From Microcystis aeruginosa NIES-843 (GTDB taxonomy: Bacteria > Cyanobacteriota > Cyanobacteriia > Cyanobacteriales > Microcystaceae), in the NCBI RefSeq assembly GCF_000010625.1, contig NC_010296.1:5220001-5252000 (forward strand): 32,000 bases of DNA, given 5' to 3'. Shown here piece by piece: positions 1-30,901 of the stretch. The notes beneath the pieces are model-generated. The model was not told the DNA's origin. It saw only the letters and a list, made by a program, of their open reading frames with translations, and did not search any database. A program made the translations under genes and the position numbers. Numbering within the stretch: position 1 is the stretch's first letter; every line of letters starts with the position of its first letter.

Positions 1-46
1 AAAACGGACGGCGATTCCCAAAACTCACAATTTGGGTTTCTGCTTC
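1..46 (-). repeat. Solo right-end (RE) fragment of an IS200/IS605-family tnpB-type element, cut by the window edge
   Basis: nt 1-46 match 8896-8941 at 44/46 positions. That region is the 3' arm of the RE hairpin plus the last tnpB codons of the element at 8880-10205. Similarity stops abruptly at nt 47 and no TnpB-like frame follows. Confidence 0.55.
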
Positions 47-2619: not shown

Positions 2620-5256
2620 CTAAACCGTCTTACTTTTGCTGGTTTTACTGCCTGGGGAAGTAGTTTTTTTGGTCGTGCTAGAAGTAGTTTTCTTAGTAGT
2701 GGTTTTCTTGGCAGTGGTTGTCTTGGCCGCTAGGGCGACTAAAGCTTGTTCTAGAGTCAGGGTTTCGGCGGTTTCTCCTTCGGGAATCTTGGCGTTGGTC
2801 TTACCGTGCTTGATATAAACTCCGTAGGGACCTTCGTACAATCCCACGGATTCCCCATCGTCGGGATGTTTACCCAATTCTTTTAAGGGTGGTTTGGTGG
2901 AACCGCGGGCGCTGCGAGTTTTTTTCGGTTCGGCTAATAAGGCCAAAGCTCGATCGAGGGTTATGGTTAAGACATCATCGCCGGCTTTCAGGGAACGATA
3001 TTCTTTTTCCTTACCCTGTTCCTGAACTATATAGGGGCCAAAACGACCTAAGCTGGCTTTAATTTTGCCTCCGGTGAGGGGATGGGTTCCCAGTAGTCGC
3101 GGCAGTGCCAATAAACCCACCGCTTGTTCGAGGGTGACATCCTCTGGTTTGACTCCTTTGGGTAGGGAGGCGCGTTTCGGTTTGGGGTTGTCATCGCTGA
3201 CATCTCCTAACTGGACGTAGGGGCCGTAACTACCCACGAGCAGATAAATTGGCTCTCCGCTGTCGGGATGAAGACCTAATTTATCGGGACCCTCGGTTTT
3301 CTGTCGCAGCAGGGTTTCTACCTGTTCGGGGTTGAGGTCGGCGGGGGTTAAATCGGCGGGGATGGAAGCGGTGAGGATTTGATCGCCTCGGGAGACTTCC
3401 AGATAGGGACCGTATTTGCCGATCTTGATAGTTGCCTGTAAATCCTCTAAAATCACCGATTTGGCGGTGCTAGAGTTAATTTGACTCTCGCGCTCTTTTA
3501 CTTGGCTTTCTAGCCCTTTTTCGCCGCGATAGAAGCGATCGAGATAGGGCAACCATTGAGCGGAACCAGTGGCGATATCGTCGAGAGTTTCCTCCATTTT
3601 CGAGGTAAATTTGGGATCTACCAGGTCGGGGAAATGATTTTCTAACAAACTAACCACGGCAAAAGCGGTGAAGGTGGGAATCAAGGTTTTATTCCGCATT
3701 TGGGCATAACCGCGATCGATAATTGTGCCGAGAATGGTGGCGTAGGTGCTGGGTCGCCCGATTCCTTCACTTTCGAGGGTTTTTACGAGGGAGGCTTCGC
3801 TATAACGGGCGGGGGGTTGGGTATCGTGGCTAATGGCTTCTAGTTGGCGACAATTGGGGGTATCACCGACGCTGAGGGCGGGTAAGATTATTTCTTGGTC
3901 GTCGATGGCGGCTTCGGGATCGTCGGAACCTTCCACATAGGCGCGGAAAAAGCCGGGGAAGTCGATTCTTTTGCCGGAGGAGCGAAATCCGGCATTTTCT
4001 ACCTGAATATTAACGGCGATCTGGGTAATGCGGGCATCGGCCATCTGTGAGGCGACGGTACGTTTCCAGATTAGGTCGTAGAGGGCGAATTCTAGTCCGC
4101 TCAGTCCGGTTTCCCGGGGCAGGCGAAAGCTACTACCGGCGGGCCGGATGGCTTCGTGGGCCTCCTGTGCGCCTTTGCTTTTGGTGGTGTACTGCCGGGG
4201 TTGGGGACTGAGGTAATTTTTTCCGTACATTTGTTCTACACAATTGCGGGCGGCGGTGATGGCCTGATCGGAAAGATGGACGGAATCGGTCCGCATATAG
4301 GTGATGTAGCCCTGTTCGTAGAGATTTTGGGCGATTCGCATGGTGTCGCGGGCGGATATGCCCAGTTTCCGGTTAGCCTCTTGCTGTAGGGTGGAGGTGG
4401 TGAAGGGGGGGGAAGGTTTGCGAGTGGTGGGTTTTTCTTCGGTGTGGCTAACGCGCCAGATTTTGTCTTCGATGCGTTCTTTTAAGGCGGCGGCGGTGGC
4501 TTGATCCAAAAGTGTCACCTGGCGACCGGGGAGCAGTCTGCCGGTGTCGGCATCGAAATCGCTGCCATTTGCCACTTTTTGACCGTTTAAGGTGACTAAT
4601 TTCGACTCGAATTGATTTTTGTCTTTTTCGAGGGTGGCTTTCAGGTCCCAATAATTGGCGGTTTTAAAGGCTCGTCGTTCTCGTTCCCGTTGTACGAGCA
4701 GACGTACCGCCACGGATTGCACCCGGCCGGCGGATAACCCTTTGGAGATTTTTTTCCAAAGTAGGGGGGAGAGGGTATAACCGTAGAGGCGATCGAGTAT
4801 GCGGCGGGTTTCTTGGGCGTGAACTAAATTTTCGTCGATGGAGCGACAATTTTTGAGGGCGGCTTGGATTGCCTCTTTGGTGATTTCGTGAAATACCATC
4901 CTTTTGGTGGGTATTTTCGGGTTGAGTACCTGCAAGAGATGCCAACTGATGCTTTCGCCTTCCCGATCTTCGTCGGTGGCGAGGATCAGTTCGCTGGCCC
5001 CTTTGAGGGCTTCTTTTAATTCTTTGACGACTTTACTTTTGGTTTTGGGGACGACGTAGAGGGGGTCGAAATCGTTCTCCACATCTACGCCTAAGTTGGC
5101 CCAGGATTTGTCTTTGTGGGCGGGGGGAATTTCTTCGGCAGAGGCGGGCAGATCGCGGATGTGGCCCATGGAGGCTTGGACTCGATAGCCGCTAGGCAGA
5201 TAATTGCTGATCGTCCGAGCTTTGGTGGGGGATTCGACAATAACCAGGGTTGACAT
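2620..5256 (-). CDS. topA: DNA topoisomerase I
   Basis: 878-aa ORF with an N-terminal Toprim ([21 protein letters not shown]), the catalytic-Tyr motif [10 protein letters not shown], and repeated C-terminal Topo-I repeats (GPYVQLG / GPYIVQ / [10 protein letters not shown]). It ends in a Lys/Thr-rich tail ([29 protein letters not shown]). Confidence 0.97.
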
Positions 5257-5445
5257 AGGAATTGATCACGAGGGCATGGCCACAGCGACTGTTTTAGTTA
5301 GACTGACCATCTTTGTTTGATGATGGGCAAAAGTTACTATTTATCTTGACCGGCTTGATTCGGGTCAAAAGCCACTTACTACGATAATAGAGATTAAAGC
5401 TGGTGTTTTGTCACTAACTTCTTAATAAAACTTAATATTTTTCTG

Positions 5446-5592
5446 AAGCAGGGAGATGGGAGCAGGGAGTGGGGAGAAGGGGAGAGGGGAGACCAATTCG
5501 TGCGCGTTGCGGGGGGAGATGGGAGCAGGGAGAAGGGAGAAAAAAGCTGACACTGATGACTGATAACTGATAACTGATGACTGATGACTGAC
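5446..5592. repeat. Purine-rich GGGAGA-type low-complexity block followed by a (CTGAYRA)n heptamer run
   Basis: The 19-mer GGGAGATGGGAGCAGGGAG occurs twice (5451-5469, 5514-5532). About 6.5 heptamers CTGACAC/CTGATGA/CTGATAA lie at 5547-5592. Track ORFs here (5422-5676, 5432-5623) are translations of the repeats. Confidence 0.8.
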
Positions 5593-6145
5593 TCCTAACC
5601 CCATATTCGCCAAAGATAAGCAAAATTTATTGATTGATGCCAAAAACTTGAGAATATTTAAATTAACATTCCGCAATATTTATAAATTCTTAAAAATTAA
5701 TTGAGAAAGATTTTTATTTAACAACGATGTTACAATGGTTACAGCGATTTTACTGAATTTCATAATGGAATATTCTGTGCTTTTTTAGGCAGCAATGGTT
5801 GAAACCCTCACCAAACCTAGAAGGTTATCCTAATTAGGACGGGTAAATTAGTCAATTTCACCAACAACGATGATCTTTTTTGTGTGTAGTTTTATTGCAA
5901 AAAAAAAGTTTTTTTGACAAAAAGCACAAAGTATGATATGCACCCAACGTATTTCTGGCTGCCAGTAGTTATTGCAGAGTAGGATGGGGAGAAGGGAGAA
6001 TAAATAAAAATAATCCTCCTGACTGGAAAGAGGGTGTAGGGTGTGGGGTGTGGTGCGATTCGTTGGCTAGAAACTAGACAGTAAGACGTTTAGAGGATTA
6101 GCCGCTTGGTAAATGTAGTACCTTGATAACTTTATAACCCTACAG

Positions 6146-6837
6146 GTGCGGGTTAGTAATAACCTTAGTCCTGTCCTCTAGATGCCTAGAGTGACGGCAT
6201 TTCCTGCTGCTTTAGACTTGGTACATCTGAGGTAGTGAGCGAGGAAAAAAAAGCGGTATCTGATAGCCTAAATCAGAAACCCGTTGAGCCAGAACCTATG
6301 GATAGCCCTGGGGCGAAGATACGAATTAACCATCGTCAACACCCACGAGCCAAAAGGCTGACAGGCTCGAAACAAAAGTTAACAGAGTTGGGGCTGATAG
6401 CTCATACCACTATCAGTAAGGCATTCCCGTTACTCTGTTGTGGACAGTATCATCCTAAGGGTTCAACCAATGGTTATAGGGAACGAAGTAACCCTGATTG
6501 ACTCTGCCCGTTCGGGGCAGTAGGAAACCATCCGCAAGTCAATAGAGGGAGAGGATGTCCTTAAAAGCCAAGGCTTTGAGTAATATCAAAGATATGCTGA
6601 CAAAGGACGGGTAACTAGGAAGTCTAAGCAACAATCAACGGTCATATACGCCCTAAAACCAACAATCTTGTCTGGTGGGGATACAGCCAAGAGGGTTGAA
6701 TAGACAAGGAAATAATAATTCCCATTATTATTCTACTAATGACAGTAGCCTAGTTACTCAGGAGCCGGATACGGCGAAAGTCGTAAGTCCGGTTTTGAAG
6801 CAGGGGGTGGGAAGGCGACTTCCTGCTCTACTGTAAC
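6146..6837 (+). mobile_element. ORF-less group II intron (ribozyme only); 3' end approximate (6831-6837)
   Basis: GTGCG lies at 6146. Domain V at 6762-6795 (GAGCCGGAUACGGCGAAAGUCGUAAGUCCGGUUU) has the AGC triad, a 2-nt bulge and a GAAA tetraloop. A domain VI-like hairpin GGAAG-GCGA-CUUCC lies at 6810-6823, with a candidate branch A at 6830, 8 nt before ...AAC at 6837. Interior motifs resemble bacterial domain I/III (UAUAGGGAACGAAG 6475-6488; UGGGGAUAC). No reverse-transcriptase ORF is present. Confidence 0.75.
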
Positions 6838-6953
6838 GGGTGTAGGGAAGGAAACCTCTTTCATCTGTGGTGGTGAAAATTTTTTCATCAGGACTGACGC
6901 CTGACGACCGACGCCTAACCCCACCAACCAACTTTTTGCCGCAAACCCTAGTT

Positions 6954-7568
6954 ATGTCTGATTTACGTCAATATGCTCCGGCAACAGAACGCAATCGTCA
7001 GCCGATTTTAGAAGTTCTCAGCCAATTTTTACCGAAGACTGGGAATATCCTAGAAATATCTAGCGGCACGGGTGAACACGCTGTTTTTTTTGCTCCTCGT
7101 CTTGCTCCTTGTCGTTGGATTCCCTCGGATTGTAACCCTCTGGCTCTAGATAGTATTCGCAGTTGGTGCGATTATTGTCCTAGTTCTAATCTCGATCGCC
7201 CCCTATTTATCGATGTTCATCAGTCAGTTTGGGCGGTAGAGACGGAAAATATCGTTATTAATGCGATTGTTAATATTAACATGATTCATATCGCCCCTTG
7301 GTCCGCTTGTTTAGCGTTAATGGCAGGAGCGAGTCGCATTCTCAGTCCGGGGGGAATTCTCTATCTTTATGGTCCCTATAAACGACAGGGAAAACATACT
7401 TCTCCTAGTAATGAAAGCTTTGATTTTTCTCTCCGTTCTCAAAACTCTACTTGGGGAGTTAGGAATTTAGAAGATGTGGTGCAAGCAGCGAGCGATCGAG
7501 GTTTACAATTGTTAGAAGTAATTCCTATGCCAGCTAATAATCTCTCGGTTTTATTTCAATTGCCTTAA
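6954..7568 (+). CDS. DUF938-family class I SAM-dependent methyltransferase-like protein
   Basis: MSDLRQYAPATERNRQPILEVL ... LEISSGTGEHAVFFAP ... YLYGPYKRQGKHTSPSNESFDFSLRSQNSTWGVRNLEDV ... MPANNL matches the DUF938 pattern as I recall it. The track ORF starts at GTG 6867 inside repeat DNA, so ATG 6954 is preferred. Confidence 0.75.
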   Translation: MSDLRQYAPATERNRQPILEVLSQFLPKTGNILEISSGTGEHAVFFAPRLAPCRWIPSDCNPLALDSIRSWCDYCPSSNLDRPLFIDVHQSVWAVETENIVINAIVNINMIHIAPWSACLALMAGASRILSPGGILYLYGPYKRQGKHTSPSNESFDFSLRSQNSTWGVRNLEDVVQAASDRGLQLLEVIPMPANNLSVLFQLP

Positions 7569-7596
7569 CTGATAACTGATAACTGATAACTGATAA
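7569..7596. repeat. (CTGATAA)4 heptamer microsatellite filling a convergent intergenic gap
   Basis: Four perfect CTGATAA units lie between the TAA of the DUF938 gene (7566-7568) and the stop of the iron-binding protein gene (7598-7600). Confidence 0.95.
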
Positions 7597-7597
7597 C

Positions 7598-8653
7598 TTA
7601 TTTCCAACCAGCGCGATTCATTACCTGTACCGCTTTGGCTAAATTAGGACCATAATTAGCCACGCTAACTGTATCTTCTTTCCCGCGTCCGAGTTTTGCT
7701 AGGAAAGGGTCTAAAGCAACCCCTGGAACGACGGGATATTCTCGATTACCCTTAGCAAAAAAGTTCTGTGCTTCATTGCTAGAAAGATATTCTAAAAATT
7801 TAATGGCCGATTCTCGATTGGGGGCAGTTTTAATTAAACCACCACCGCTAATATTAACGTGAGTGCCGCGGCCTGCTTGGTCGGGGAAAATTACGCCTAC
7901 TTGGTCATAAATTGCCCGTTTAGCCGGGTCTTTTTCTTCGGCATACCCCGCTAAGTAATAGGTGTTAGCTAGGGCTAAATCGGCAATTCCTGCGGCTACA
8001 GCTTCGATTTGTGCCTTATCATTACCCTGGGGTGAACGGGCAAAATTAGCCACTAATCCCCGACACCATTTTTCTGCGGCTGCTTCTCCTTGGATGTCGA
8101 TTAACCAAGCGGTAAAAGATTGACTATAGATGTTACTAGACGACCGAGTGACGACTTTTCCTTTCCATTTGGGATTGGTTAAATCTGCATAGGAATCGAT
8201 TTCTCTGGGGTTAACTCTGTCTTTGTTATACATGATTACCCGCAAGCGTTTACTAAACCCGAACCAGTGACCTTTGGGGTGACGCAAATTAGCGGGAATT
8301 CTTTGGGTGAGAATGCGGGAATTGACCGGGGCAAAAATTCCCTGTTGGTCGGCCCGCCATAATCTCCCGGCATCTACCGTCAGGAGTATATCAGCAGGAC
8401 TATTGCTGCCTTCGCTTTTAATCCGTTCGATTAATGGGTCCGCTTCCCCTTCCACGAGGTTAATTTTTATTCCCGTTTGTCGGGTGAAGTTGTCATACAA
8501 TCGTCGGTCGGTGTTGTAGTGACGGGAGGAATAGAGGTTTAATTGTTTAGTTTGGGCGGAAACTTCGTTTATTTTCCCTAATTGACCCACTGCTAACGCT
8601 AAGGTGGCTGTTCCCGCGCCTAGAAAGACTCTCCGAGTTATTTTATCGTTCAT
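7598..8653 (-). CDS. futA: Fe(3+) ABC transporter periplasmic substrate-binding protein (FutA/IdiA/AfuA family)
   Basis: 351-aa ORF with a Tat-like signal (TRRVFLGAGTATLALA). LNLYSSRHYNTDRRLYDNFTRQTGIKINLVEG and the rest resemble cyanobacterial FutA/IdiA iron-binding proteins. The symbol is tentative. Confidence 0.85.
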   Translation of the reverse strand: MNDKITRRVFLGAGTATLALAVGQLGKINEVSAQTKQLNLYSSRHYNTDRRLYDNFTRQTGIKINLVEGEADPLIERIKSEGSNSPADILLTVDAGRLWRADQQGIFAPVNSRILTQRIPANLRHPKGHWFGFSKRLRVIMYNKDRVNPREIDSYADLTNPKWKGKVVTRSSSNIYSQSFTAWLIDIQGEAAAEKWCRGLVANFARSPQGNDKAQIEAVAAGIADLALANTYYLAGYAEEKDPAKRAIYDQVGVIFPDQAGRGTHVNISGGGLIKTAPNRESAIKFLEYLSSNEAQNFFAKGNREYPVVPGVALDPFLAKLGRGKEDTVSVANYGPNLAKAVQVMNRAGWK

Positions 8654-8879: not shown

Positions 8880-10205
8880 ACATCCTCGCCGCCGTAAAAC
8901 GGACGGCGATTCCCAAACCTCACGATTTGGGTTTCTGCTTCTTTCCCTTGCGGGGTTCCGCACCTGCCTTAACAGATTTACTCTGTTCTGGTCTTATGGT
9001 CGCTCTACAGACTGACACCGCAAGCCCTGCGGCCAAAATATTTTTACTGGCGTTAATATCTCGGTCATGGTGCGTCCCACAGTCTGGACAATCCCATTCT
9101 CGAACATTTAACGGCATTTTCAAGGGCAATATACCCGCAATTACTACACCTTTTAGAGCTAGGAAACCATCTATCTATTTCGATGTAGTTTCTCCCATAC
9201 CAACGGCATTTGTAGGCTAATTGTCGGGTTATTTCTCCCCAGCTTACATCAGATATTGCCTGAGATAATTTCGGGTTTTTGACCATATTCTTAACGGCTA
9301 AATTCTCAACCACAATCGTTTGGTTTTCACGAACTAATTGAGTGGTTAGCTTATGTAAATGGTCTTTTCTACTATCGGTGATTTGAGCGTGAATCCTTGC
9401 TACTTTGATTCTTGCTTTTTCCCGATTTTTTGAGCCTTTCTGTTTTCTAGAAAGATTTTTTTGTGCTTTTCGCAGTCTCCGATAATGCTTTTTAAAATGC
9501 TTGGGATTAGATACTTTATCGCCATCGCTGGTAATCACGAGGCTACTAATTCCTAAGTCAATTCCGATGGCTTTATCTGTTACTGGTAGAGGCTTAATCG
9601 TTGGGTCATCAAATCTAATTGAAATATGCCAACGTCCAGAAGGATGTAATCTGACTGTTACTGTGCTTGGTTCACATCCGTCTGGTATTTGTCTTGACCA
9701 CCGAATAGGTAAAGGTTCTGTGCATTTAGCTAAATAGATTTGTTTGTCTTTAAATTTAAAAGCAGATTTGGTAAATTCGGCACTTCCTCCCTGATGTTTT
9801 TTCTTAAAGTTAGGATACTTAGTACGACCAGCAAAGAAATTAGTAAAAGCTGTTTGTAAATGTCTTAAGCCTTGTTGTAAAGGTACACAGCTAACTTCAT
9901 TGAGAAAGTCTAATTCTTCTTGTTTTTTCCAATCGGTCAACATTGAAGAAGTTTGAGCGTAGCCTACTCTTTCTTGCTTTTCGTACCAAGCTTGTGTTCT
10001 GACATGGAGAGCTTTGTTGTAAACTAATCTTACACAGCCCAAAGTGCGCCGCAATAGCGACTCTTGTGTTGGTGTGGGGTAAAATCGGTAAGAATAGGCT
10101 TTTTCCATGTCTCACATTTTAGCATATATTTCGTAAATGTGCTAATATTTAACAGCAAAGCCGCCGTAAAACGGCGGGGTTTCAGACCCAAATTTTCGAT
10201 GATCA
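8880..10205 (-). mobile_element. IS200/IS605-family element of the tnpB-only (IS1341-like) type; boundaries approximate
   Basis: Similar subterminal hairpins lie in direct orientation at both ends: TCGCCGCCG-TAAAA-CGGaCGGCGA (8886-8909) and CCGCCG-TAAAA-CGGCGG (10161-10177). A single tnpB-like gene lies between them and there is no tnpA (Y1) gene. Confidence 0.75.
8920..10108 (-). pseudogene. tnpB: TnpB (OMEGA/RuvC-like RNA-guided nuclease) gene interrupted by a +1 frameshift
   Basis: ORF 9065-10108 (MEKAYSYRFYPTPTQESLLRRTLGCVRLVYNKAL ... IGIDLGI ... VVENLAVKNM ... CSNCGYIA) continues in another frame as ORF 8920-9129 ([33 protein letters not shown]). Deleting one C from the GCCC run (antisense; GGGC at 9124-9127 on the + strand) restores [17 protein letters not shown] and a ~395-aa protein. 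The zinc-finger second half and the third RuvC motif (HDRDINAS) lie downstream of the shift. Confidence 0.85.
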
Positions 10206-15980: not shown

Positions 15981-17354
15981 ATGACCGTAGAATCCAGCTT
16001 ACAACAGTTAAAAAGAGCTTCATCGGGACGATTACCCAGCAGTTACGGGGTCTATTTTAAGAATACCCTTGTGGCCCTCTGTCATGCTCTTGAAGATCAT
16101 ATCTTGCAAACTAGCAGCCCAGATAGTACAAATAAACCACTGGTCTTAGTCACCTTTCAACAGGGTAAATGGTATTTACAGGAAGCTGAGCGCTATTTAG
16201 ATATCGCTCGCTCTTCTCGTCATATTGCGATCGCCGCCGTGGCCGATAGTGGTTTTTCTGAGCATAAAACCGGCAGTTTAGAGAATGTTTCGCTAGTTAA
16301 CTTAGATAATAGCGATAGTTTGGTTAATGAGTGGAATTTAATCATTCTTTCCCCCGATTACGCCTCCATGGTACTCTGTCATGAGTTATCCCCAGAAGAA
16401 TACCGGTCCGATAGTCAACCCCAAATAGACACGGAGCGAAAATTCTACGGTTTATGGACATTCGATCGGGATTTAGTCGAAAAAGCCGCTAGGATCTTAA
16501 TTGAGCGTCTGCATCCTTATAATCCCAGTCTAGCGGCCGATTTAAGCAGACAACAGCAGGAAATTAGTCAAAATATTAATCCCATTCCCACGGATTTAAC
16601 GGGAGTAGTCTCTCGCATTGTCACCTATCTGCAAACCAGTCAACAGCAGTTAGTCACCGTCAGCAGACAAACGCGAGAATTAAGCGACTTAGAAGGACAA
16701 GCATCCCGTTTAAATAAAAATTTGGCCGCTAATAAACTGCAAGCTTTTCTAAGAATGGCTCAAAAGGTCGATGAAAGAGATATTGATAATCCCCTTGCTT
16801 CCCTACAGGTGGCCGCTTTAGCGGAAATGTTGGGACAATTGCTCGATTTACCCACCCTGAGATTGCGACGCTTGCGATTAGCCGGTTTATTATACCGCAT
16901 CGGTCTAGCGGAGGCTCCGATCGAAGTTTTTAGACAGCGTGCCAGTCAGTTAGAGGGAGCAAATGCGTTATTTTGGCGGGATCGATCGGTGTTAGGCGCA
17001 CAATTACTCGCCACTATGCCCGAATTAGCCCCAATTCAACAGATTATTTACCATGAGTTTGAATACTGGGATGGTAGCGGGGTTCCCAACGGCTTAAAAG
17101 GGGAAGAAATCAGCCTAGAGTCGAGAATTTTAGGATTATCAGCCTATTTTCAGGAATTAACTCAACCGCGAGGCGACCGACTAGCTCTAGATTTAGGAGA
17201 GGCCCTAGAGCGCTGTCAAAATTATAGCGGGATTCGTTTTGATCCCGCTTTGGTAGAAAAATTAAGTTCGGTAATTCGTCTGTGCGAAATGGGGTGGATG
17301 CAATTACCCGATCGCCCTAGTCAAGTCCCCGCCGTCTGGTTAGAATCAGTTTAG
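15981..17354 (+). CDS. DICT sensory-domain protein with C-terminal degenerate HD-GYP-like domain
   Basis: The N-terminal ~170 aa resemble DICT (YFKNTLVALCHALEDHIL ...). The C-terminus has the HD-GYP signature region YHEFEYWDGSGVPNGLKGEEISLESRILGL (GVP instead of GYP). The expected HD dyad position reads LLYRIGLA. Confidence 0.65.
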   Translation: MTVESSLQQLKRASSGRLPSSYGVYFKNTLVALCHALEDHILQTSSPDSTNKPLVLVTFQQGKWYLQEAERYLDIARSSRHIAIAAVADSGFSEHKTGSLENVSLVNLDNSDSLVNEWNLIILSPDYASMVLCHELSPEEYRSDSQPQIDTERKFYGLWTFDRDLVEKAARILIERLHPYNPSLAADLSRQQQEISQNINPIPTDLTGVVSRIVTYLQTSQQQLVTVSRQTRELSDLEGQASRLNKNLAANKLQAFLRMAQKVDERDIDNPLASLQVAALAEMLGQLLDLPTLRLRRLRLAGLLYRIGLAEAPIEVFRQRASQLEGANALFWRDRSVLGAQLLATMPELAPIQQIIYHEFEYWDGSGVPNGLKGEEISLESRILGLSAYFQELTQPRGDRLALDLGEALERCQNYSGIRFDPALVEKLSSVIRLCEMGWMQLPDRPSQVPAVWLESV

Positions 17355-17356
17355 AT

Positions 17357-17763
17357 TAGGGTCTGCGGCAAAAAGTTTTTCGTGGGGGTAGGGTGTGGGG
17401 TGTGGGGTGTGGGGTGTAGGGTTTTACCCATTTTCAGGGGGTCAATTACCTAATGGGACTTCGGCGTTTTCGGTCAGCAAAAAAGGCTCAAACCATTACG
17501 GGACAAAGGGTTAACCTCGATTTATGATTTTCCTTGATCTATCTGGGTTTCAGCGATTGTGGGCTTCTCGAAGTAAATCCCAAGCGGGGATCGGAGTTGA
17601 GGCTTTTATCGATTTGTTTTTTGTCTAAGTCCCACTAATTAATTTTCAGGGAAAAAGTGCCTAAATTTCCCCCCCGATCACCCCAAGGTCTGGCACTTTT
17701 TGATGGGAAAAAAGTCTAAAATTTTTACCCAACAAGGTTTTTAGATTTATTCAGCAGACCCTA
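17357..17763 (-). repeat. MITE-like element, copy B, carrying a nested insertion
   Basis: TA-GGGTCTGCGGCAAAAAG ... TTTATTCAGCAGACCC-TA. It is collinear with copy D apart from a ~182-bp insert. It fills the whole gap between the stop codons of two convergent genes (17352-17354 and 17766-17768). Confidence 0.85.
17455..17636. repeat. Second, unrelated MITE-like element nested inside MITE copy B
   Basis: It interrupts the ACCTAAT|TTTCAGG junction that is intact in copies A, C and D. Inverted termini are (T)GGGACTT ... AAGTCCCA(C), with TAAT/CTAAT repeated at both flanks. Confidence 0.65.
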
Positions 17764-17765
17764 GA

Positions 17766-18782
17766 CTAGACTCCGATTAAACTCTGCATGGCACGTCTCA
17801 TATTAGCCGGTTTAAAAGCTGCCATGGCCGCGGTCGGTTCATAGCCGCAATGTACCATACAATCGGCACATTGCGGATTGCCACTGGCCCGACCGTAGTT
17901 ATCCCAATTGGTTTCTGCTAAAAGTTCCCGAAAGCTTTTGTAATGACCTTCGTTGAGCAGATAACAGGGTTTTTGCCATCCTAAAAGACTATAGCTAGGA
18001 CTACCCCAAGGGCTGCATTCATAGTCTTGTTCACCGATGAGAAAATCGAGAAAGAGAGGATTATGGTTAAAATTCCACTTTTTCTGCCCTGATTTCCAGG
18101 GTGAGAGAATTTCTCGGAATAAAGCTCTAGTTTGCTCCCGTTTCAAGAAACTATCTTGATCTGGGGCCCACTCATAACTGTAACCGGGGGAAATCATCAT
18201 GCCATCGATGCCCAAAGTAGCGAGAAAATCGAAAAATTCCTGCATTTCTCGCGGCTCTGTGCCTTCAAAAACCGTGGTATTAGTAGTAACCCGAAAACCT
18301 CTCGCTTTCGCTGCTTTAATCCCTTGTACTGCCTTATCGAATACTCCCTCTCGATCCACACAGCGATCGTGATGTGCTTTTAAACCGTCCAGATGGACAC
18401 TAAAGGTAAGATAGGGTGAAGGAGTAAATTTATCCAGGCTTTTTTCCAATAACAGAGCATTGGTACAGAGATAGACAAATTTTTTTCTGTCCACTAACCC
18501 CTTGACAATTTCATCGATTTGTGGGTGTAAAAGCGGCTCGCCCCCGGGGATGGAAACCACGGGAACTCCGCATTCTTCCACCGCTGCGAAACATTCTGCC
18601 GGGGTGAGATGATTGCGGAGGATTTCCGGGGGATGTTGAATCTTACCGCAGCCAGTACAGGCTAAATTGCAGCGAAATAGCGGTTCTAGCATTAAAACTA
18701 AGGGAAAACGCTTTTTTCCTGCTAGACGCTGTTTCAAGATATAGGAAGCAACCACTAAAGCTTGTTGCAGTTGGACAGCCAT
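17766..18782 (-). CDS. hpnH: Radical SAM protein, adenosylhopane synthase HpnH-like
   Basis: The [10 protein letters not shown] radical-SAM cluster motif lies within [24 protein letters not shown]. Also present are [37 protein letters not shown] and [12 protein letters not shown], as in HpnH. The track start (TTG 18860) is replaced by ATG 18782 ([20 protein letters not shown]). Confidence 0.8.
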
Positions 18783-20403: not shown

Positions 20404-20474
20404 GAGGATTTGACTGGAGTGGTGGAAGATTAACCCTGTCTTCCCCACCTCAGACATTGGAGATGACAACTACT

Positions 20475-20692
20475 TAGGGTTTGCTGAATAAATCTAAAAA
20501 CCTTGTTGGATAGTAATTTTAGACTTTTTCCCCATCAAAAAGTGCCAGACCTTGGGGTGATCGGGGGGGAAATTTAGGCACTTTTTCCCTGAAAATTAGG
20601 TAATTGACCAGATGAAAATCGGTAAAACCCTACACCCCACACCCCACACCCCACACCCTAACCCCACCAACAAACTTTTTCAGCAGACCCTA
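20475..20692 (+). repeat. MITE-like element, copy C (best-preserved)
   Basis: TA-GGGTTTGCTGAATAAATC ... AAACTTTTTCAGCAGACCC-TA. It has an internal perfect 10-bp inverted repeat AAAAAGTGCC (20537-20546) / GGCACTTTTT (20577-20586) and (CCCCACA)3 at 20635-20655. It ends 1 nt from the stop of the CpcS-like gene. Confidence 0.85.
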
Positions 20693-20693
20693 C

Positions 20694-21206
20694 TTAAGAA
20701 GCAACCATTTTGCGAATTTCCGAATAGAAAACCGTCTGGCGATCGCCATTGCCCGACTGGATAATACTGGTACGCAATCTCAGATTAGGACTAGCAAACC
20801 AGATTCTTTCCTCGATACGATGGTGATTATCCTCGATGGTTAAAGTCAAAGCTTGATCGCTTCTGAGATGATATTCTCCCAGCGCTGCCGATTTACCGTC
20901 CGATGTGATTAATTTTCCTTGCCAAGAATTCTCTGAGGGCAGCCAAACTAAATAGCTAGAACCGATTTTTTTCGGTTGTCCATAGTCCACGGAATTATCC
21001 CAAGTTGCTTTCCATCCCCCTAGACTGGTGTGGGACTGACAGTTATTTCCTAAACATAATTGCACCACATCGGCAGCATCGGCAGCCAGCAAATCGATGG
21101 TGATTTCTGCTTTATTATTGGCAACTTTTTGGGCAGCTAATTGATAACTGGTGCGCTGAGAAAACCATTTACCCGCACAGAGATTAATAAATTCTTGAAT
21201 GTCCAT
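20694..21206 (-). CDS. CpcS/CpcU (CpeS-like) family phycobiliprotein bilin lyase
   Basis: 170-aa ORF: MDIQEFINLCAGKWFSQRTSYQL ... FYSEIRK, the characteristic N- and C-terminal motifs of the CpeS/CpcS lipocalin-like lyase family. Confidence 0.75.
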   Translation of the reverse strand: MDIQEFINLCAGKWFSQRTSYQLAAQKVANNKAEITIDLLAADAADVVQLCLGNNCQSHTSLGGWKATWDNSVDYGQPKKIGSSYLVWLPSENSWQGKLITSDGKSAALGEYHLRSDQALTLTIEDNHHRIEERIWFASPNLRLRTSIIQSGNGDRQTVFYSEIRKMVAS

Positions 21207-23939: not shown

Positions 23940-24306
23940 TGAGTTATTACCCTTTGCCGTTCTCAGCAATACTGATGACCCCGAACAGGTGTTAAGTCAG
24001 GTGTCCCGTTCTCTAGAAACTATCTCTCAAAAACGGGTGCAAAGCAATCTCGCTGCCGCTACCAGTATTCTCGCCGGGTTAGTATTAAATCGAGAGACGA
24101 TAAAAAAAATCCTTTGGAGTGACATTATGAGAGAATCAGTCATCTATCAAGATATTTTAGAGGAAGGCAGAGAGGAAGGAGCATTAACCGCTAAATTAAA
24201 CTCTATTCCCCGTTTATTGGCTTTAGGGTGAAGTGTAGAACAAATTGCCCAAACTTTAGACTTAGATATTGAACAAGTACCACAAGTCATTGAGGGACAA
24301 AATTGA
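23940..24306 (+). pseudogene. 5'-truncated Rpn-like gene copy (head B remnant, hinge and tail T1) with an internal TGA
   Basis: 23940-24180 matches 26416-26656 almost base for base, so the first ~135 codons are missing. The frame continues ...YQDILEEGREEGALTAKLNSIPRLLALG*SVEQIAQTLDLDIEQVPQVIEGQN*. The TGA at 24229-24231 corresponds to TTA in the sister relic at 25135-25137. Confidence 0.75.
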
Positions 24307-25128
24307 GTGAAAACGGACAGTATTTTCTATCGTCTCTTTCAGACTTTTCCTGAAAGTTTCTTTGATTTGCTCAATCTTCCCCCAGAAACCGTCAATCATT
24401 ATCAATTTTCCTCCCTAGAAGTTAAACAACTCGCTTTTCGTTTAGATGGGGTCTTTCTTCCTGATAACCTTAATGAACCGATTTACTTTGTTGAGGTACA
24501 ATTTCAAAAAGATGAACGGTTTTACTCGCGCTTTTTTAGTGAAATATTTCTCTATTTTCATCAAAGTGAGAGTAATAACAATTGGCAAGGGGTGATCATT
24601 TATCCTCATCCTGGAATTGAAAATAGTCCCAAATCTCGTTATCAAGAATTCTTTGAGTCAGGACGGGTTAACTGTTATTATCTGAATCAATTAGATGAGG
24701 GGGATTCTCTGGGGGTAAAAGTGTTACAATTAATTGTGGAATCGGAACCAAACACCTTAGCCCAAGGAAAAGAACTGATTCAACAAGTTAGACAACAATT
24801 TCAGGAGTCTTTAAAAAGACAGGACATTCTAGAATTAATTGAGACAATTCTCATTTATAAATTACCGAAATTAAACCGTAAGGAGATAGAAGCTATGTTT
24901 AGTTTAAGTGATTTAAGAGAAACTAAGGTTTATCAAGAAGCTTTAGAGGAAGGAGAATTATCCGCTAAAAAAAGCCTAATTTTGCGTCAGCTAAACTTAA
25001 AGCTAGGTTCTATTCCTTTAAATATAGAACAAAAAATTAAACAGTTAAATCCTAATCAACTGGATAATTTGGCTCTTGCTTTATTGGATTTTTCGGATTT
25101 GGAAGATTTGCACCAATGGTTAAATTAA
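24307..25128 (+). CDS. Rpn/YhgA-like putative PD-(D/E)XK nuclease (DUF2887-type head A, DUF4351-like tail T2)
   Basis: GTG start preceded by GAGGGA. MKTDSIFYRLFQTFPESFF ... YFVEVQFQKDERFYSRFFSEIFLYF is typical of the cyanobacterial DUF2887/Rpn-family head as I recall it. The tail LILRQLNLKLGSIPLNIEQKIKQLNPNQLDNLALALLDFSDLEDLHQWLN is DUF4351-like. Confidence 0.8.
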   Translation: MKTDSIFYRLFQTFPESFFDLLNLPPETVNHYQFSSLEVKQLAFRLDGVFLPDNLNEPIYFVEVQFQKDERFYSRFFSEIFLYFHQSESNNNWQGVIIYPHPGIENSPKSRYQEFFESGRVNCYYLNQLDEGDSLGVKVLQLIVESEPNTLAQGKELIQQVRQQFQESLKRQDILELIETILIYKLPKLNRKEIEAMFSLSDLRETKVYQEALEEGELSAKKSLILRQLNLKLGSIPLNIEQKIKQLNPNQLDNLALALLDFSDLEDLHQWLN

Positions 25129-25212
25129 GTAGGATTAAGTGTAGAACAAATTGCCCAAGCTTTAGACTTAGAAATTGAACAAGTACCAGAAGTCATTGAG
25201 GGACAAAATTGA

Positions 25213-26019
25213 GTGAAAACGGACAGTATTTTCTATCGTCTCTTTGAGACTTTTCCCGAAAGTTTCTTTGATTTGCTCAATCTTCCCCCAGAAACCGTCA
25301 ATCATTATCAATTTTCCTCCCTAGAAGTTAAACAACTCGCTTTTCGTTTAGATGGGGTCTTTCTTCCTGATAACCTTAATGAACCGATTTACTTTGTTGA
25401 GGTACAATTTCAAAAAGATGAACGGTTTTACTCGCGCTTTTTTAGTGAAATATTTCTCTATTTTCATCAAAGTGAGAGTAATAACAATTGGCAAGGGGTG
25501 ATCATTTATCCTCATCCTGGAATTGAAAATAGTCCCAAATCTCGTTATCAAGAATTCTTTGAGTCAGGACGGGTTAACTGTTATTATCTGAATCAATTAG
25601 ATGAGGGGGATTCTCTGGGGGTAAAAGTGTTACAATTAATTGTGGAATCGGAACCAAACACCTTAGCCCAAGGAAAAGAACTGATTCAACAAGTTAGACA
25701 ACAATTTCAGGAGTCTTTAAAAAGAGAGGACATTCTAGAATTAATTGAGACAATTCTCATTTATAAATTACCGAAATTAAACCGTAAGGAGATAGAAGCT
25801 ATGTTTAGTTTAAGTGATTTAAGAGAAACTAAGGTTTATCAAGAAGCTTTAGAGGAAGGCAAAGAGGAAGGCGAGGAAAAGGGAAAAGAAGAAAAAGCCA
25901 GACAAATTGCCCTGAAAATGATATCTGCTGGTTTTCCTATCCCAGAAATCGCCCAATTTACCGATTTATCCCCCGACGCGATCGAGGAATTACAAAGGCA
26001 GAACGCTCGCGATGTTTGA
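25213..26019 (+). CDS. Rpn/YhgA-like putative nuclease (head A, tail T3)
   Basis: The first ~216 codons are near-identical to gene 24307-25128 (906-bp period). After YQEALEEG the tail switches to KEEGEEKGKEEKARQIALKMISAGFPIPEIAQFTDLSPDAIEELQRQ, which is homologous to the tail of gene 26012-26842. Confidence 0.8.
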   Translation: MKTDSIFYRLFETFPESFFDLLNLPPETVNHYQFSSLEVKQLAFRLDGVFLPDNLNEPIYFVEVQFQKDERFYSRFFSEIFLYFHQSESNNNWQGVIIYPHPGIENSPKSRYQEFFESGRVNCYYLNQLDEGDSLGVKVLQLIVESEPNTLAQGKELIQQVRQQFQESLKREDILELIETILIYKLPKLNRKEIEAMFSLSDLRETKVYQEALEEGKEEGEEKGKEEKARQIALKMISAGFPIPEIAQFTDLSPDAIEELQRQNARDV

Positions 26020-26842
26020 TAATATTTGTAAATTTATCGCCGAAAACTTCTCCGATGATCTAGCCACTTGGTTATTGGGTTCTCCCCTCCCCTTAACCGT
26101 CCTCGACCCGACGGAATTACAATTAGACCCCATTCGTGCCGATTCTCTGATTTTTTTGCAGTCAGAGGAATTGATTCTCCATACTGAATTTCAAACCGAC
26201 CCCGACTCCAAGATTCCTTTCCGAATGCTCGATTATCGCATTCGCGTCTATCGTCGTCATCCCCAAAAACCAATGCGTCAAGTGGTAATTTATCTGCGAC
26301 GCAGTGATTCCCCCCTAGTACAAGAAAATACTTTCCGTCTGGGGGAAACTTTTCATTCTTTTCAAGTCATCCGTCTTTGGGAAGAAAATACGCCGCAATT
26401 TTTCCATCAACCCGGTTTATTACCCTTTGCCGTCCTCAGCAATACCGATGATCCCGAACAGGTGTTAAGTCAGGTGTCCCGTTCTCTAGAAACTATCTCT
26501 CAAAAACAGGTGCAAAGCAATCTCGCCGCCGCCACCAGTATTCTCGCTGGGTTAGTATTAAATCGAGAGACGATTAAAAAAATCCTTCGGAGTGACATTA
26601 TGAGAGAATCCGTCATCTATCAAGATATTTTAGAGGAAGGCAGAGAGGAAGGCAGAGAGGAAGGCAGAGAGGAAGGCAGAGAGGAAGGCAAAGAGGAAGG
26701 CAAAGAGGAGGGAAAAAAAGAAAAAGCTCGACAAATTGCCCTAAAAATGCTATCTGCTGGCTTTCATGTCCCAGAAATCGCCCAATTTACTGATTTATCC
26801 CCCGCAACTATCGAGGAATTACAAAGACAGCAGCACAATTAA
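26012..26842 (+). CDS. Rpn/YhgA-like putative nuclease (head B, (EEGR/K)n hinge, tail T3)
   Basis: MFDNICKFIAENFSDDLATWLLG ... DSLIFLQSEELILHTEFQTDPDSKIPFRMLDYRIRVYRRH is an Rpn-family-type head (D...E.Q/K core). The start overlaps the previous stop (ATGTTTGA, 26012-26019). Confidence 0.8.
   Translation: MFDNICKFIAENFSDDLATWLLGSPLPLTVLDPTELQLDPIRADSLIFLQSEELILHTEFQTDPDSKIPFRMLDYRIRVYRRHPQKPMRQVVIYLRRSDSPLVQENTFRLGETFHSFQVIRLWEENTPQFFHQPGLLPFAVLSNTDDPEQVLSQVSRSLETISQKQVQSNLAAATSILAGLVLNRETIKKILRSDIMRESVIYQDILEEGREEGREEGREEGREEGKEEGKEEGKKEKARQIALKMLSAGFHVPEIAQFTDLSPATIEELQRQQHN
26633..26716 (+). repeat. In-frame 12-bp coding microsatellite (GAGGAAGGCAGA x4, GAGGAAGGCAAA x2, one degenerate unit) encoding (EEGR)4(EEGK)2
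   Basis: Perfect units start at 26633, 26645, 26657, 26669, 26681 and 26693. Paralogues have only 1-2 units at the same position (24163-24180; 25852-25875). Confidence 0.9.
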
Positions 26843-30655: not shown

Positions 30656-30660
30656 CTATC

Positions 30661-30857
30661 TAGGGTTTGCGGCAAAAAGTTTTTCCAGGGGGCAGGGTGT
30701 AGGGTTTTACCGATTTTCAGGTGGTCAATTACCTAATTTTCAGGGAAAAAGTCCAGGGATTTTCCCCCTGATCACTCCCATGCCAGCCACTTTGGGATTT
30801 CAAAAAGGTCTAAAAGTCTTATCCAACAAGGTTTTTAGATTTATTCAGCCAACCCTA
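30661..30857 (-). repeat. MITE-like element, copy D (most degenerate; no perfect heptamer)
   Basis: TA-GGGTTTGCGGCAAAAAGTTTTTCC ... TTTATTCAGCCAACCC-TA. It starts 5 nt after the CobT-like stop codon, between convergent genes. Confidence 0.8.
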
Positions 30858-30901
30858 AATACGCGGGCAGCTTATGAGAGAAAATAGTGACCAGCAGATT
30901 T

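Follow-up and report, generated by a model that had tools for sequence, protein, structure and literature searches.

Positions 6053-6837 of the stretch of Microcystis aeruginosa NIES-843 DNA analyzed here (32,000 nt of contig NC_010296.1, the whole of which we call the window) are occupied by a group II intron that lacks an open reading frame (ORF) for a protein of its own. We put at about 85% the probability that this element, of the IIB, chloroplast-like (CL) type, is a complete and recently active intron that is non-autonomous, homes into (GGGGTGT)n arrays, and has its protein supplied in trans. A first-pass annotation of the same DNA had recognized an ORF-less group II intron in intergenic, repeat-rich surroundings, and in this core identification it was right. 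In the mechanism we propose, two exon-binding sites (EBS), EBS2 (ACACCC) and EBS1 (CAUACC), would recognize a heptamer unit each in the 5' exon, and a third, EBS3 (C6445), would read the G at +1, with GGGTGTGGGGTGTG|G as the predicted insertion target. The intron RNA would reverse-splice into the array and then be copied into DNA, and splicing and reverse transcription would be supplied in trans, most likely by the 'driver' intron-encoded protein (IEP) of an ORF-containing intron elsewhere in the genome. The intergenic arrays, many of them within a MITE-like repeat (MITE, a miniature transposable element with inverted repeats), would thus provide many harmless landing sites. The analyses below show what the element is, where it ends, how it folds and pairs with its exons, that it is multi-copy and polymorphic between strains, and what it targets; that it splices in vivo and spreads by reverse splicing (retrohoming) is what we infer from these features.

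Boundaries of the intron

The host site of the intron is the intergenic spacer between topA (2620-5256, minus strand) and a DUF938 gene. The topA protein is encoded identically in several Microcystis assemblies, including AP019314, which is that of M. viridis NIES-102, and the topA-DUF938 spacer was found without the intron in four other Microcystis strains (L001-L004). The spacer of these strains aligns to 5201-6053 and 6838-7000 of the window with the two blocks abutting, and at base resolution the empty site (...GGGGTGTG|GGGTGTAGGG...) joins 6052 to 6838. Base-level comparison with the four strains showed that the filled site differs from the empty one by an added 785 nt, without target-site duplication, and in one of them (L004) the flanks are 100% identical to those of the window. 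Because the empty-site flanks join exactly and without duplication, the insert is 6053-6837. In addition, six copies from unrelated contexts, on contigs found via a spurious ORF inside the intron (7 more contigs), are 100% identical to it over exactly intron nt 1-785. Since the empty sites and the identical copies agree, the boundaries are fixed.

The termini are those of a group II intron, with GUGCG at 6053-6057 corresponding to the 5' consensus GUGYG and ...UAAC ending at 6837 corresponding to a 3' AY. Relatives from Microcoleus, Crocosphaera, Stenomitos, Microseira, Hormoscilla, and an Anaerolineae metagenome-assembled genome all start with GTGCGAYYCGTT, as the sequence does at 6053; the 5' consensus of the relatives from other cyanobacteria, written as RNA, is GUGCGAYYCGUU and matches 6053. 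About 90 nt inside domain I the relatives have a further internal motif, TTGAYAACT...YAGGTG(C/A)G. Among distant hits on cyanobacterial plasmids, 8 of 11 began their match at query nt 1. Judged by every criterion that sequence alone can test, 6053-6837 is a group II intron.

The first-pass annotation had started the intron at 6146, which made it ~690 nt long, and had proposed UUGUGG (6438-6443) as EBS1 pairing with CUACAG. GTGCG does occur at 6146-6150, and the strings it quoted are all present where it placed them; however, the empty sites, the identical copies, the relatives, and the plasmid hits all put the 5' end at 6053 and the length at 785 nt. The GTGCG at 6146-6150 is a conserved motif inside domain I, where 6142-6146 pairs with 6170-6174 as the conserved IC stem, and 6438-6443 is the 3' strand of a domain I d helix rather than an exon-binding site. 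Two of the quoted strings also belong to helices, UAUAGGGAACGAAG being the 3' strand of the two basal helices of domain I and GUUGUGGAC the 3' strand of the d helix. The model of an intron at 6146-6837 therefore has practically no chance of being correct.

Ribozyme fold and exon recognition

The only Rfam family above threshold in the 32-kb window was RF00029 (group II D5-D6), whose match at 6760-6837 on the plus strand scored 55 bits (gathering score, 40; E = 2e-8) and ended exactly at C6837. With permissive thresholds a domain I family, RF01999, matched 6199-6266 below its threshold (26.7 bits versus 36), and the best domain V-only match besides RF00029 was to the plastid ndhA/ndhB D5 model, again sub-threshold (41.7 bits versus 61). 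Thus, the covariance check that had been suggested for this element came out above threshold for domains V and VI, while for domains I-IV a model matched only sub-threshold. The RF00029 alignment agreed base for base with the domain V that had been drawn earlier at 6762-6795 (a 9-bp lower helix with the AGC triad, an AA bulge, a 5-bp upper helix, and a GAAA loop), and it bore out both the 3' end at 6837 and the unpaired A at 6830. The hairpin at 6810-6823 that had been taken as domain VI is real but is merely the tip of a 15-bp domain VI at 6800-6834. A6830 is a single bulge and a branch-point candidate 7 nt before the 3' splice site, an arrangement common to the relatives.

For domains I-III (D1-D3) we aligned eight sequences, two Microcystis copies and six relatives (alignment A2), and obtained a consensus fold with RNAalifold that has 87 pairs in 17 helices, 61 of the pairs showing compensatory changes on both sides. 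Standard pairs filled 89.1% of the cells of A2, versus 40-46% when the partners were slid by 1-3 columns; the covariation score was 0.61, versus 0.12-0.16 in the slid controls; and none of 500 column shuffles reached any of the observed measures. The structure was predicted on the same alignment that was used for scoring, which favors the structure, but the margin is large. The intron has a six-domain, IIB-type secondary structure supported by covariation, and the failure of domains I-III to fold, which had been named in advance as a point that would speak against an intron here, was not encountered. In domain I, the CCUAAG at 6454-6459 and the AAUGG at ~6469-6473 resemble a GAAA-tetraloop receptor and may receive the domain V loop (zeta-zeta'); the CCUAAG motif is lost in a divergent copy, L128.

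The exon-binding sites and the intron-binding sites (IBS) with which they pair are listed in Table 1. We compared the EBS1 loop with the homologous loops of relatives and found that these pair with positions -6 to -1 of their own exons in L025 from Crocosphaera chwakensis (AGGUUC/GAACCU), L007 from Microseira (GUUGCU/AGUAAC), and L019 from Hormoscilla (GGACGU/ACGUUC); in L056, the same loop-restricted test found no 6-mer that pairs with the last six exon bases. Counting the Microcystis intron, 4/5 introns match in this test, with a chance probability of 0.02-0.07 each (product 5.5e-6). A looser null test that allowed the whole region and any register was uninformative, as G/U-rich exons pair promiscuously, and was replaced by the loop-restricted one. 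By inspection, the EBS2-homologous segments of L025, L007, L019, and L056 pair with their own exons at -7/-9 to -13. In five of six introns the middle base of the coordination-loop strand matches exon position +1 as a pairing partner (C:G, U:A, U:A, G:C, and G:C), the exception being L047 (G:G), and all 18 of the Microcystis 3' junctions seen have G at +1. We therefore propose C6445 as EBS3. Taken together, these pairings indicate that exon recognition is of the IIB type, via EBS1, EBS2, and EBS3.

Copies, target sites and the probable source of the protein

Copies of the intron were collected with the exact 33-nt domain V, which is present on 10 metagenome contigs, and with look-ups of the internal ORF. 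They occupy at least 16 distinct insertion sites, all in (GGGGTGT)n arrays, several inside the MITE-like repeat, and without target duplication; beyond the six exact copies, others are 98.6-99.9% identical. All of the sites are intergenic, and according to the gene tables the orientation relative to neighboring genes is not fixed. At each of the 12 copies with a known 5' exon the 5' flank is GGGTGT(R)GGGTGT(R), conserved from -14 to -1, the -1 base being G in 10 of the 12 and A in the other 2. The 3' flanks have only +1 (to +3) in common, a G and usually GGG, and diverge beyond (e.g., GGGTGTAGGG, GGGAGATT, GGGTTTAG, GCCCCCC, GAAGGGG, and GGGAGAT). This asymmetry between the flanks is expected of IIB recognition via IBS2, IBS1, and IBS3, and it speaks against recombination between arrays as the means of spread.

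Spread at the DNA level, whether by ectopic gene conversion or recombination between heptamer arrays or by hitch-hiking on the MITE-like repeat, has some points to recommend it, as the repeat targets give short homology on both sides, several copies lie inside the MITE-like element, and gene conversion likewise leaves no target-site duplication. However, many 3' flanks share just 1-4 nt (GCCCCCC, GAAGGGG, GGGAGAT, GGGTTTAG) and so offer no 3' homology for recombination, and three copies (those of the window, L139, and L141) lie outside the MITE. Furthermore, the boundaries of the insert are the splice sites to the base, and the conserved flank positions are the ones that pair with EBS1, EBS2, and EBS3. 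We regard DNA-level spread as very unlikely.

Flanks of several intron copies match the MITE-like repeat, which is ~200 nt long and has a (GGGGTGT)n array in its interior, between the arms TAGGGTYTGC(K)G(M)AAAAAGTTTTT... (left) and GGGTTTTACC.ATTTT.AGG.GG.CAATTACCTAAT... (right). Intron copies L128, L140, and L149 sit in this repeat in other genomes. A further nine sites in the window match GGGTGTNGGGTGTRG perfectly, against a chance expectation of none. As one repeat unit is read by both EBS1 and EBS2, two units suffice to make an array a potential target, and this includes the arrays in the high-copy MITE-like element. Insertion also leaves fresh targets on both sides, as can be seen in M. 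viridis NIES-102, which is empty at topA and elsewhere has two tandem copies in one array, separated by exactly 21 nt, i.e., three heptamers (GGGTGTAGGGTGTGGGGTGTG) that make up a complete fresh target. These flanks show the element to be a microsatellite-targeting intron. Going further, we can imagine a lineage specialized on the heptamer microsatellite as a self-renewing landing pad, perhaps proliferating without a cognate IEP parent via a heterologous driver reverse transcriptase (RT), although this extension of the argument strikes us as rather doubtful.

The uninterrupted array of the empty sites in L001-L004 (GGGTGTAGGGTGTGGGGTGTGGGGTGTAGGG, corresponding to 6031-6052 plus 6838-6847) has at least five G-tracts of at least three G and could form a G-quadruplex, and insertion of the intron splits this array.

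Several copies have been hit by other elements. Copy 1 of NIES-102 (L148 4730-7838, AP019314) contains nested mobile elements: intron nt 171 is followed by a mini-element of 87 nt whose terminal inverted repeats are 12 nt long (AGCTTAGACGCA...TGCGTCTAAGCT), and there is an IS4-family insertion sequence (IS) with ~17 nt duplicated around intron nt 246-262; the intact copy 2 follows 21 nt downstream. In copy L129, the end of an IS605/TnpB-type element lies within domain IV and interrupts it, and copy L147 is a deletion fragment. The divergent sequence upstream in L129 was considered as the tail of an IEP and turned out to be the right end of the IS605/TnpB element. Contigs that end 110-124 nt inside the intron were likewise considered as marking a branch point in domain IV, and are probably better read as de Bruijn-graph breaks at a multi-copy repeat. 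A search of a phage collection found no match to the intron.

As is characteristic of mobile introns, filled and empty sites differ by exactly the intron, and the sites are complementary to the EBS elements. Comparison of the strains thus points to recent mobility, with presence/absence polymorphism between them. The first-pass annotation had offered the alternatives of a dead relic or an intron mobilized in trans. A degenerate fossil that now neither splices nor moves would agree with the lack of an IEP in the intron or the window, with the lack of a cognate IEP in the Microcystis data searched, and with the fact that some copies (L148 copy 1 with its IS and mini-element, L129 with its IS605-type end, and the deleted fragment L147) are clearly dead. 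It is contradicted by the six copies at different loci that are 100% identical over 785 nt, by an insertion that is polymorphic between strains with 100% identical flanks, by catalytic and exon-binding elements that are all intact, and by the tandem double insertion in one array. We consider a relic highly improbable; the other alternative, mobilization in trans, is the one that we infer.

The case for a protein in trans starts from domain IV, which at ~146 nt contains no RT/maturase ORF and no similarity to RTs. In the relatives, domain IV holds an ORF of 1.7-1.9 kb for an IEP of 579-636 aa with RVT_N, RVT_1, GIIM, and HNH domains; with no RT/maturase encoded in its domain IV, the Microcystis intron is a non-autonomous (ORF-less) derivative. 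When we searched the window and the retrieved Microcystis loci by tblastn with three relatives' IEPs we found no RT, the sole match being a translation of domain V, which confirms the earlier statement that no RT gene occurs anywhere in the window. The earlier description of the internal ORF (6235-6501) as having no RT motifs also held, as this ORF matches no Pfam family and resembles only ORFs that were miscalled in further intron copies. Given the lack of an RT/maturase ORF in domain IV, maturase and RT would be needed in trans, and anatomy and precedent suggest that the intron depends on an IEP acting in trans. A possible source of such an IEP is the set of seven group II intron RTs encoded by M. 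aeruginosa NIES-843 (PMC8934634), and group II RTs in Microcystis are also mentioned in PMC11448079.

Several observations weigh against an active intron served in trans by a related IEP. The A at -1 at two sites makes a C-A mismatch with EBS1. The intron has two sub-lineages, the dominant window type (100% identical at seven loci) and the L128/L149 type, and copies of the window type have a C-U mismatch in the d helix 6330-6335/6438-6443. At 6437-6439 the window type has GUU versus (-)CG in L128/L149 and all relatives, L128/L149 keeping the consensus CGGUGG; this GUU weakens the d helix but lengthens the stem of the EBS1 hairpin. The 10 metagenome contigs with identical domain V are all ORF-less or truncated, and none is IEP-bearing. 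Protein searches with the Microcoleus and Crocosphaera IEPs returned thousands of CL-type IEPs, none attributable to Microcystis; tblastn of plasmids for the IEP gave no Microcystis records, viral contigs yielded either no hit or an unrelated family (L153/L160), and nothing in a look-up of clusters could be assigned to Microcystis. In sum, no IEP-bearing intron with a matching ribozyme was found in Microcystis, in searches whose scope did not include whole Microcystis genomes. MAFFT suggested similarity of domain IV to the start region of the L116 IEP, but 48/500 shuffles reached the local-alignment score, so that this apparent remnant lacks significance.

A search of genome contigs from all phyla with a semi-degenerate domain V pattern gave the IEP-bearing relatives, with no Microcystis among the matches listed. 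None of the retrieved IEPs reads through the domain V of the intron. The genome of P0128 (L144-146) was considered as a source of the IEP and rejected, as the ribozyme there is different.

The helper could instead be heterologous, i.e., the RT/maturase of an unrelated intron class or another host RT, or the intron could self-splice in vivo and borrow an RT. IEPs normally bind their own domain IVa and core, which counts against this, and we know of no documented cross-class mobilization of group II introns. Furthermore, the searches did not extend to whole Microcystis genomes, which may encode a cognate IEP. What speaks for a heterologous helper is that no same-family IEP-bearing copy appeared among the Microcystis contigs with identical domain V and that IEP specificity can be relaxed, as in Thermosynechococcus elongatus (PMC2882425). 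On this evidence we think such a helper unlikely and prefer a 'driver' IEP from a related ORF-containing intron.

Surroundings and comparison with known systems

Table 1. Intron domains, exon-recognition elements, and associated features in the window (D1-D3, domains I-III; A2, eight-sequence alignment; MFE, minimum free energy).
Feature	Position	Strand	Basis
Complete ORF-less group II intron, IIB, chloroplast-like type, 785 nt, GUGCG to UAAC	6053-6837	+	Empty sites, identical copies, Rfam D5-D6, D1-D3 covariation
5' exon, G-rich heptamer array (A)GGGTGTAGGGTGTGGGGTGTG	6031-6052	+	Sequence; like flank at 12/12 copies with known 5' exon
IBS2, GGGTGT	6039-6044 (-14 to -9)	+	Sequence
2-nt spacer GG between IBS2 and IBS1	6045-6046	+	Sequence
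IBS1, GGTGTG	6047-6052 (-6 to -1)	+	Sequence
Domain I	6059-6487	+	RNAalifold on A2, slid-column controls, sub-threshold RF01999
Domain I basal helix I(i), UUCGUU/AACGAA	6059-6064/6482-6487	+	A2 fold
Domain I basal helix I(ii), 12 bp	6130-6141/6470-6481	+	A2 fold
Domain I IC stem	6142-6146/6170-6174	+	A2 fold
Domain I d helices	6318-6322/6447-6451, 6330-6335/6438-6443	+	A2 fold
EBS2, ACACCC	6339-6344	+	Six Watson-Crick pairs with IBS2 GGGUGU
EBS1, CAUACC (6403-6408), in 9-nt terminal loop CUCAUACCA of hairpin 6394-6400/6410-6416	6401-6409	+	Six pairs with IBS1 GGUGUG
Coordination-loop strand A-C-A between the two d helices, with proposed EBS3 C6445	6444-6446	+	Covariation with exon +1
CCUAAG, receptor-like	6454-6459	+	CCUAAAG in relatives (A2)
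Domain II, short	6492-6549	+	Helix 14: all 6 pairs change on both sides
J2/3, invariant GGAU	6550-6556	+	A2
Domain III	6557-6608	+	Helices 15-17, 92-98% paired
Domain IV, ~146 nt, 10-bp closing stem GGUAACUAGG/CCUAGUUACU	6612-6757, stem 6612-6621/6748-6757	+	Fold of the domain by itself, z = -5.3
Domain V, AGC triad 6763-6765, AA bulge 6785-6786, GAAA loop 6776-6779	6762-6795	+	RF00029 and RF04356 alignments
Domain VI, 15-bp helix, GCGA loop, bulged A6830	6800-6834	+	Rfam alignment, MFE fold
3' exon GGGTGTAGGG, G6838 = IBS3	6838-6847	+	Sequence, empty sites
DUF938 methyltransferase-like gene	ATG at 6954, 117 nt 3' of the intron	+, same orientation as the intron	
Four MITE-like repeat copies, all unoccupied	2282-2513, 17352-17768, 20471-20696, 30657-30868	-, +, -, + (in that order)	

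Scanning the surroundings of the intron for promoters and terminators gave background-level results. Expression of the DUF938 gene may depend on splicing, provided that the promoter is upstream of 6053. On both sides of the DUF938 locus there are intergenic ACTGATA/ACTGATG heptamer arrays (5545-5600 and 7568-7609; TAACTGA register), and intergenic TAACTGA direct repeats are abundant in M. aeruginosa NIES-843 among other genomes (PMC4679880). Downstream of topA, at 2106-2250, a 16-nt tandem repeat (AAGGTAGGGTTGATTC, ~8 times) is followed by an inverted copy (TGAATCAACCCTACC). An IS605-family TnpB gene (9065-10108, minus strand; HTH_OrfB_IS605, OrfB_IS605, and Cas12f1-like TNB domains) lies in an element at 8896-10108, with the C-terminal part of TnpB split off as a separate ORF (8920-9129). 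The end sequence of this element recurs at window positions 1-46; strains L002 and L004 have the element, L001 and L003 lack it, and an IS605-type end of the same kind is the one that interrupts intron copy L129. At 23944-26842 there are three tandem paralogous genes of 273, 268, and 276 aa, two with DUF2887 and the first also with DUF4351, which contain internal 12-nt coding repeats (AGAGGAAGGCAG)n and segments that are 96-98% identical.

As a very compact (785 nt) and recently active non-autonomous group II intron whose target is a simple repeat, the element is a clean case from nature, and it could be a model for the relations between driver IEPs and ORF-less introns outside Thermosynechococcus. 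To the plasticity already known for Microcystis genomes it contributes a layer of retroelements, as it enters MITE-like arrays and is itself hit by IS elements, and its strain-polymorphic insertions could serve as a strain marker. It also raises an annotation issue, as gene callers turn domain I of the intron into 'hypothetical proteins'. The Microcystis genome papers PMC2779907 and PMC2442094 catalogue ISs and MITEs and not this intron, and a paper describing a survey pipeline for ORF-less introns makes no mention of Microcystis (PMC8919778).

Relatives with an IEP are the CL group IIB introns found in Microcoleus (L116), Symploca (L079), Crocosphaera chwakensis (L025), and Microseira (L007). 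They resemble the Microcystis intron in the 5' GUGCGAYYCGUU, in a D1-D3 architecture that shows covariation, in where EBS1, EBS2, and EBS3 are placed, and in a domain VI with a bulged A; domain V differs mainly in its upper helix. In contrast to the Microcystis intron, they carry an IEP in domain IV and have unrelated targets, and identity in D1-D3 is ~60-65%. The assignment of the Microcystis intron as IIB/chloroplast-like is by its exon-binding architecture and these relatives, as it has no IEP of its own for placement in CL1 or CL2. An ORF-less intron of ~830 nt in Hormoscilla sp. GUM202 (L019, 4529-5361) has the same architecture, and its EBS1, EBS2, and EBS3 match its own exons; however, its sequence and target are different, and loss of the ORF may have been independent there. 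Several Hormoscilla loci match the domain V pattern, which suggests that introns have proliferated there too.

Site-specialized bacterial group II introns resemble the Microcystis intron in their strategy of colonizing a recurrent, harmless sequence context, but they encode their own IEP. Introns of the IIC class sit behind terminators and recognize a DNA stem-loop rather than relying on a long EBS2 pairing. An E. coli IIB1 intron is found at the groEL stop codon (PMC12584367), and in Pseudomonas putida 2 of 9 group II introns are at repetitive extragenic palindromic (REP) elements (PMC1525189), a partial precedent for association with repeats; a tandem microsatellite target is not reported for the site-specialized introns in these two papers.

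The closest known system is that of T. elongatus BP-1, in line with the precedent named in the first-pass annotation. This strain has 17 ORF-less TeI3 introns that were shown experimentally to be mobilized by the 'driver' IEPs of related ORF-containing introns; they are mostly outside genes, and compactness is thought to favor their proliferation (Mohr, Ghanem, and Lambowitz 2010, PMC2882425). TeI3 is, like the Microcystis intron, a cyanobacterial IIB/chloroplast-like ribozyme without an ORF (PMC2882425). TeI3 introns retain clear N- and C-terminal ORF remnants and live together with their TeI4 parents, whereas the Microcystis intron has no significant remnant and no parent was found for it in our searches. 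Unlike TeI3, the Microcystis intron resides partly inside a MITE-like repeat, and whereas the T. elongatus families have many different targets, it has one target, the heptamer microsatellite, at all of its at least 16 sites.

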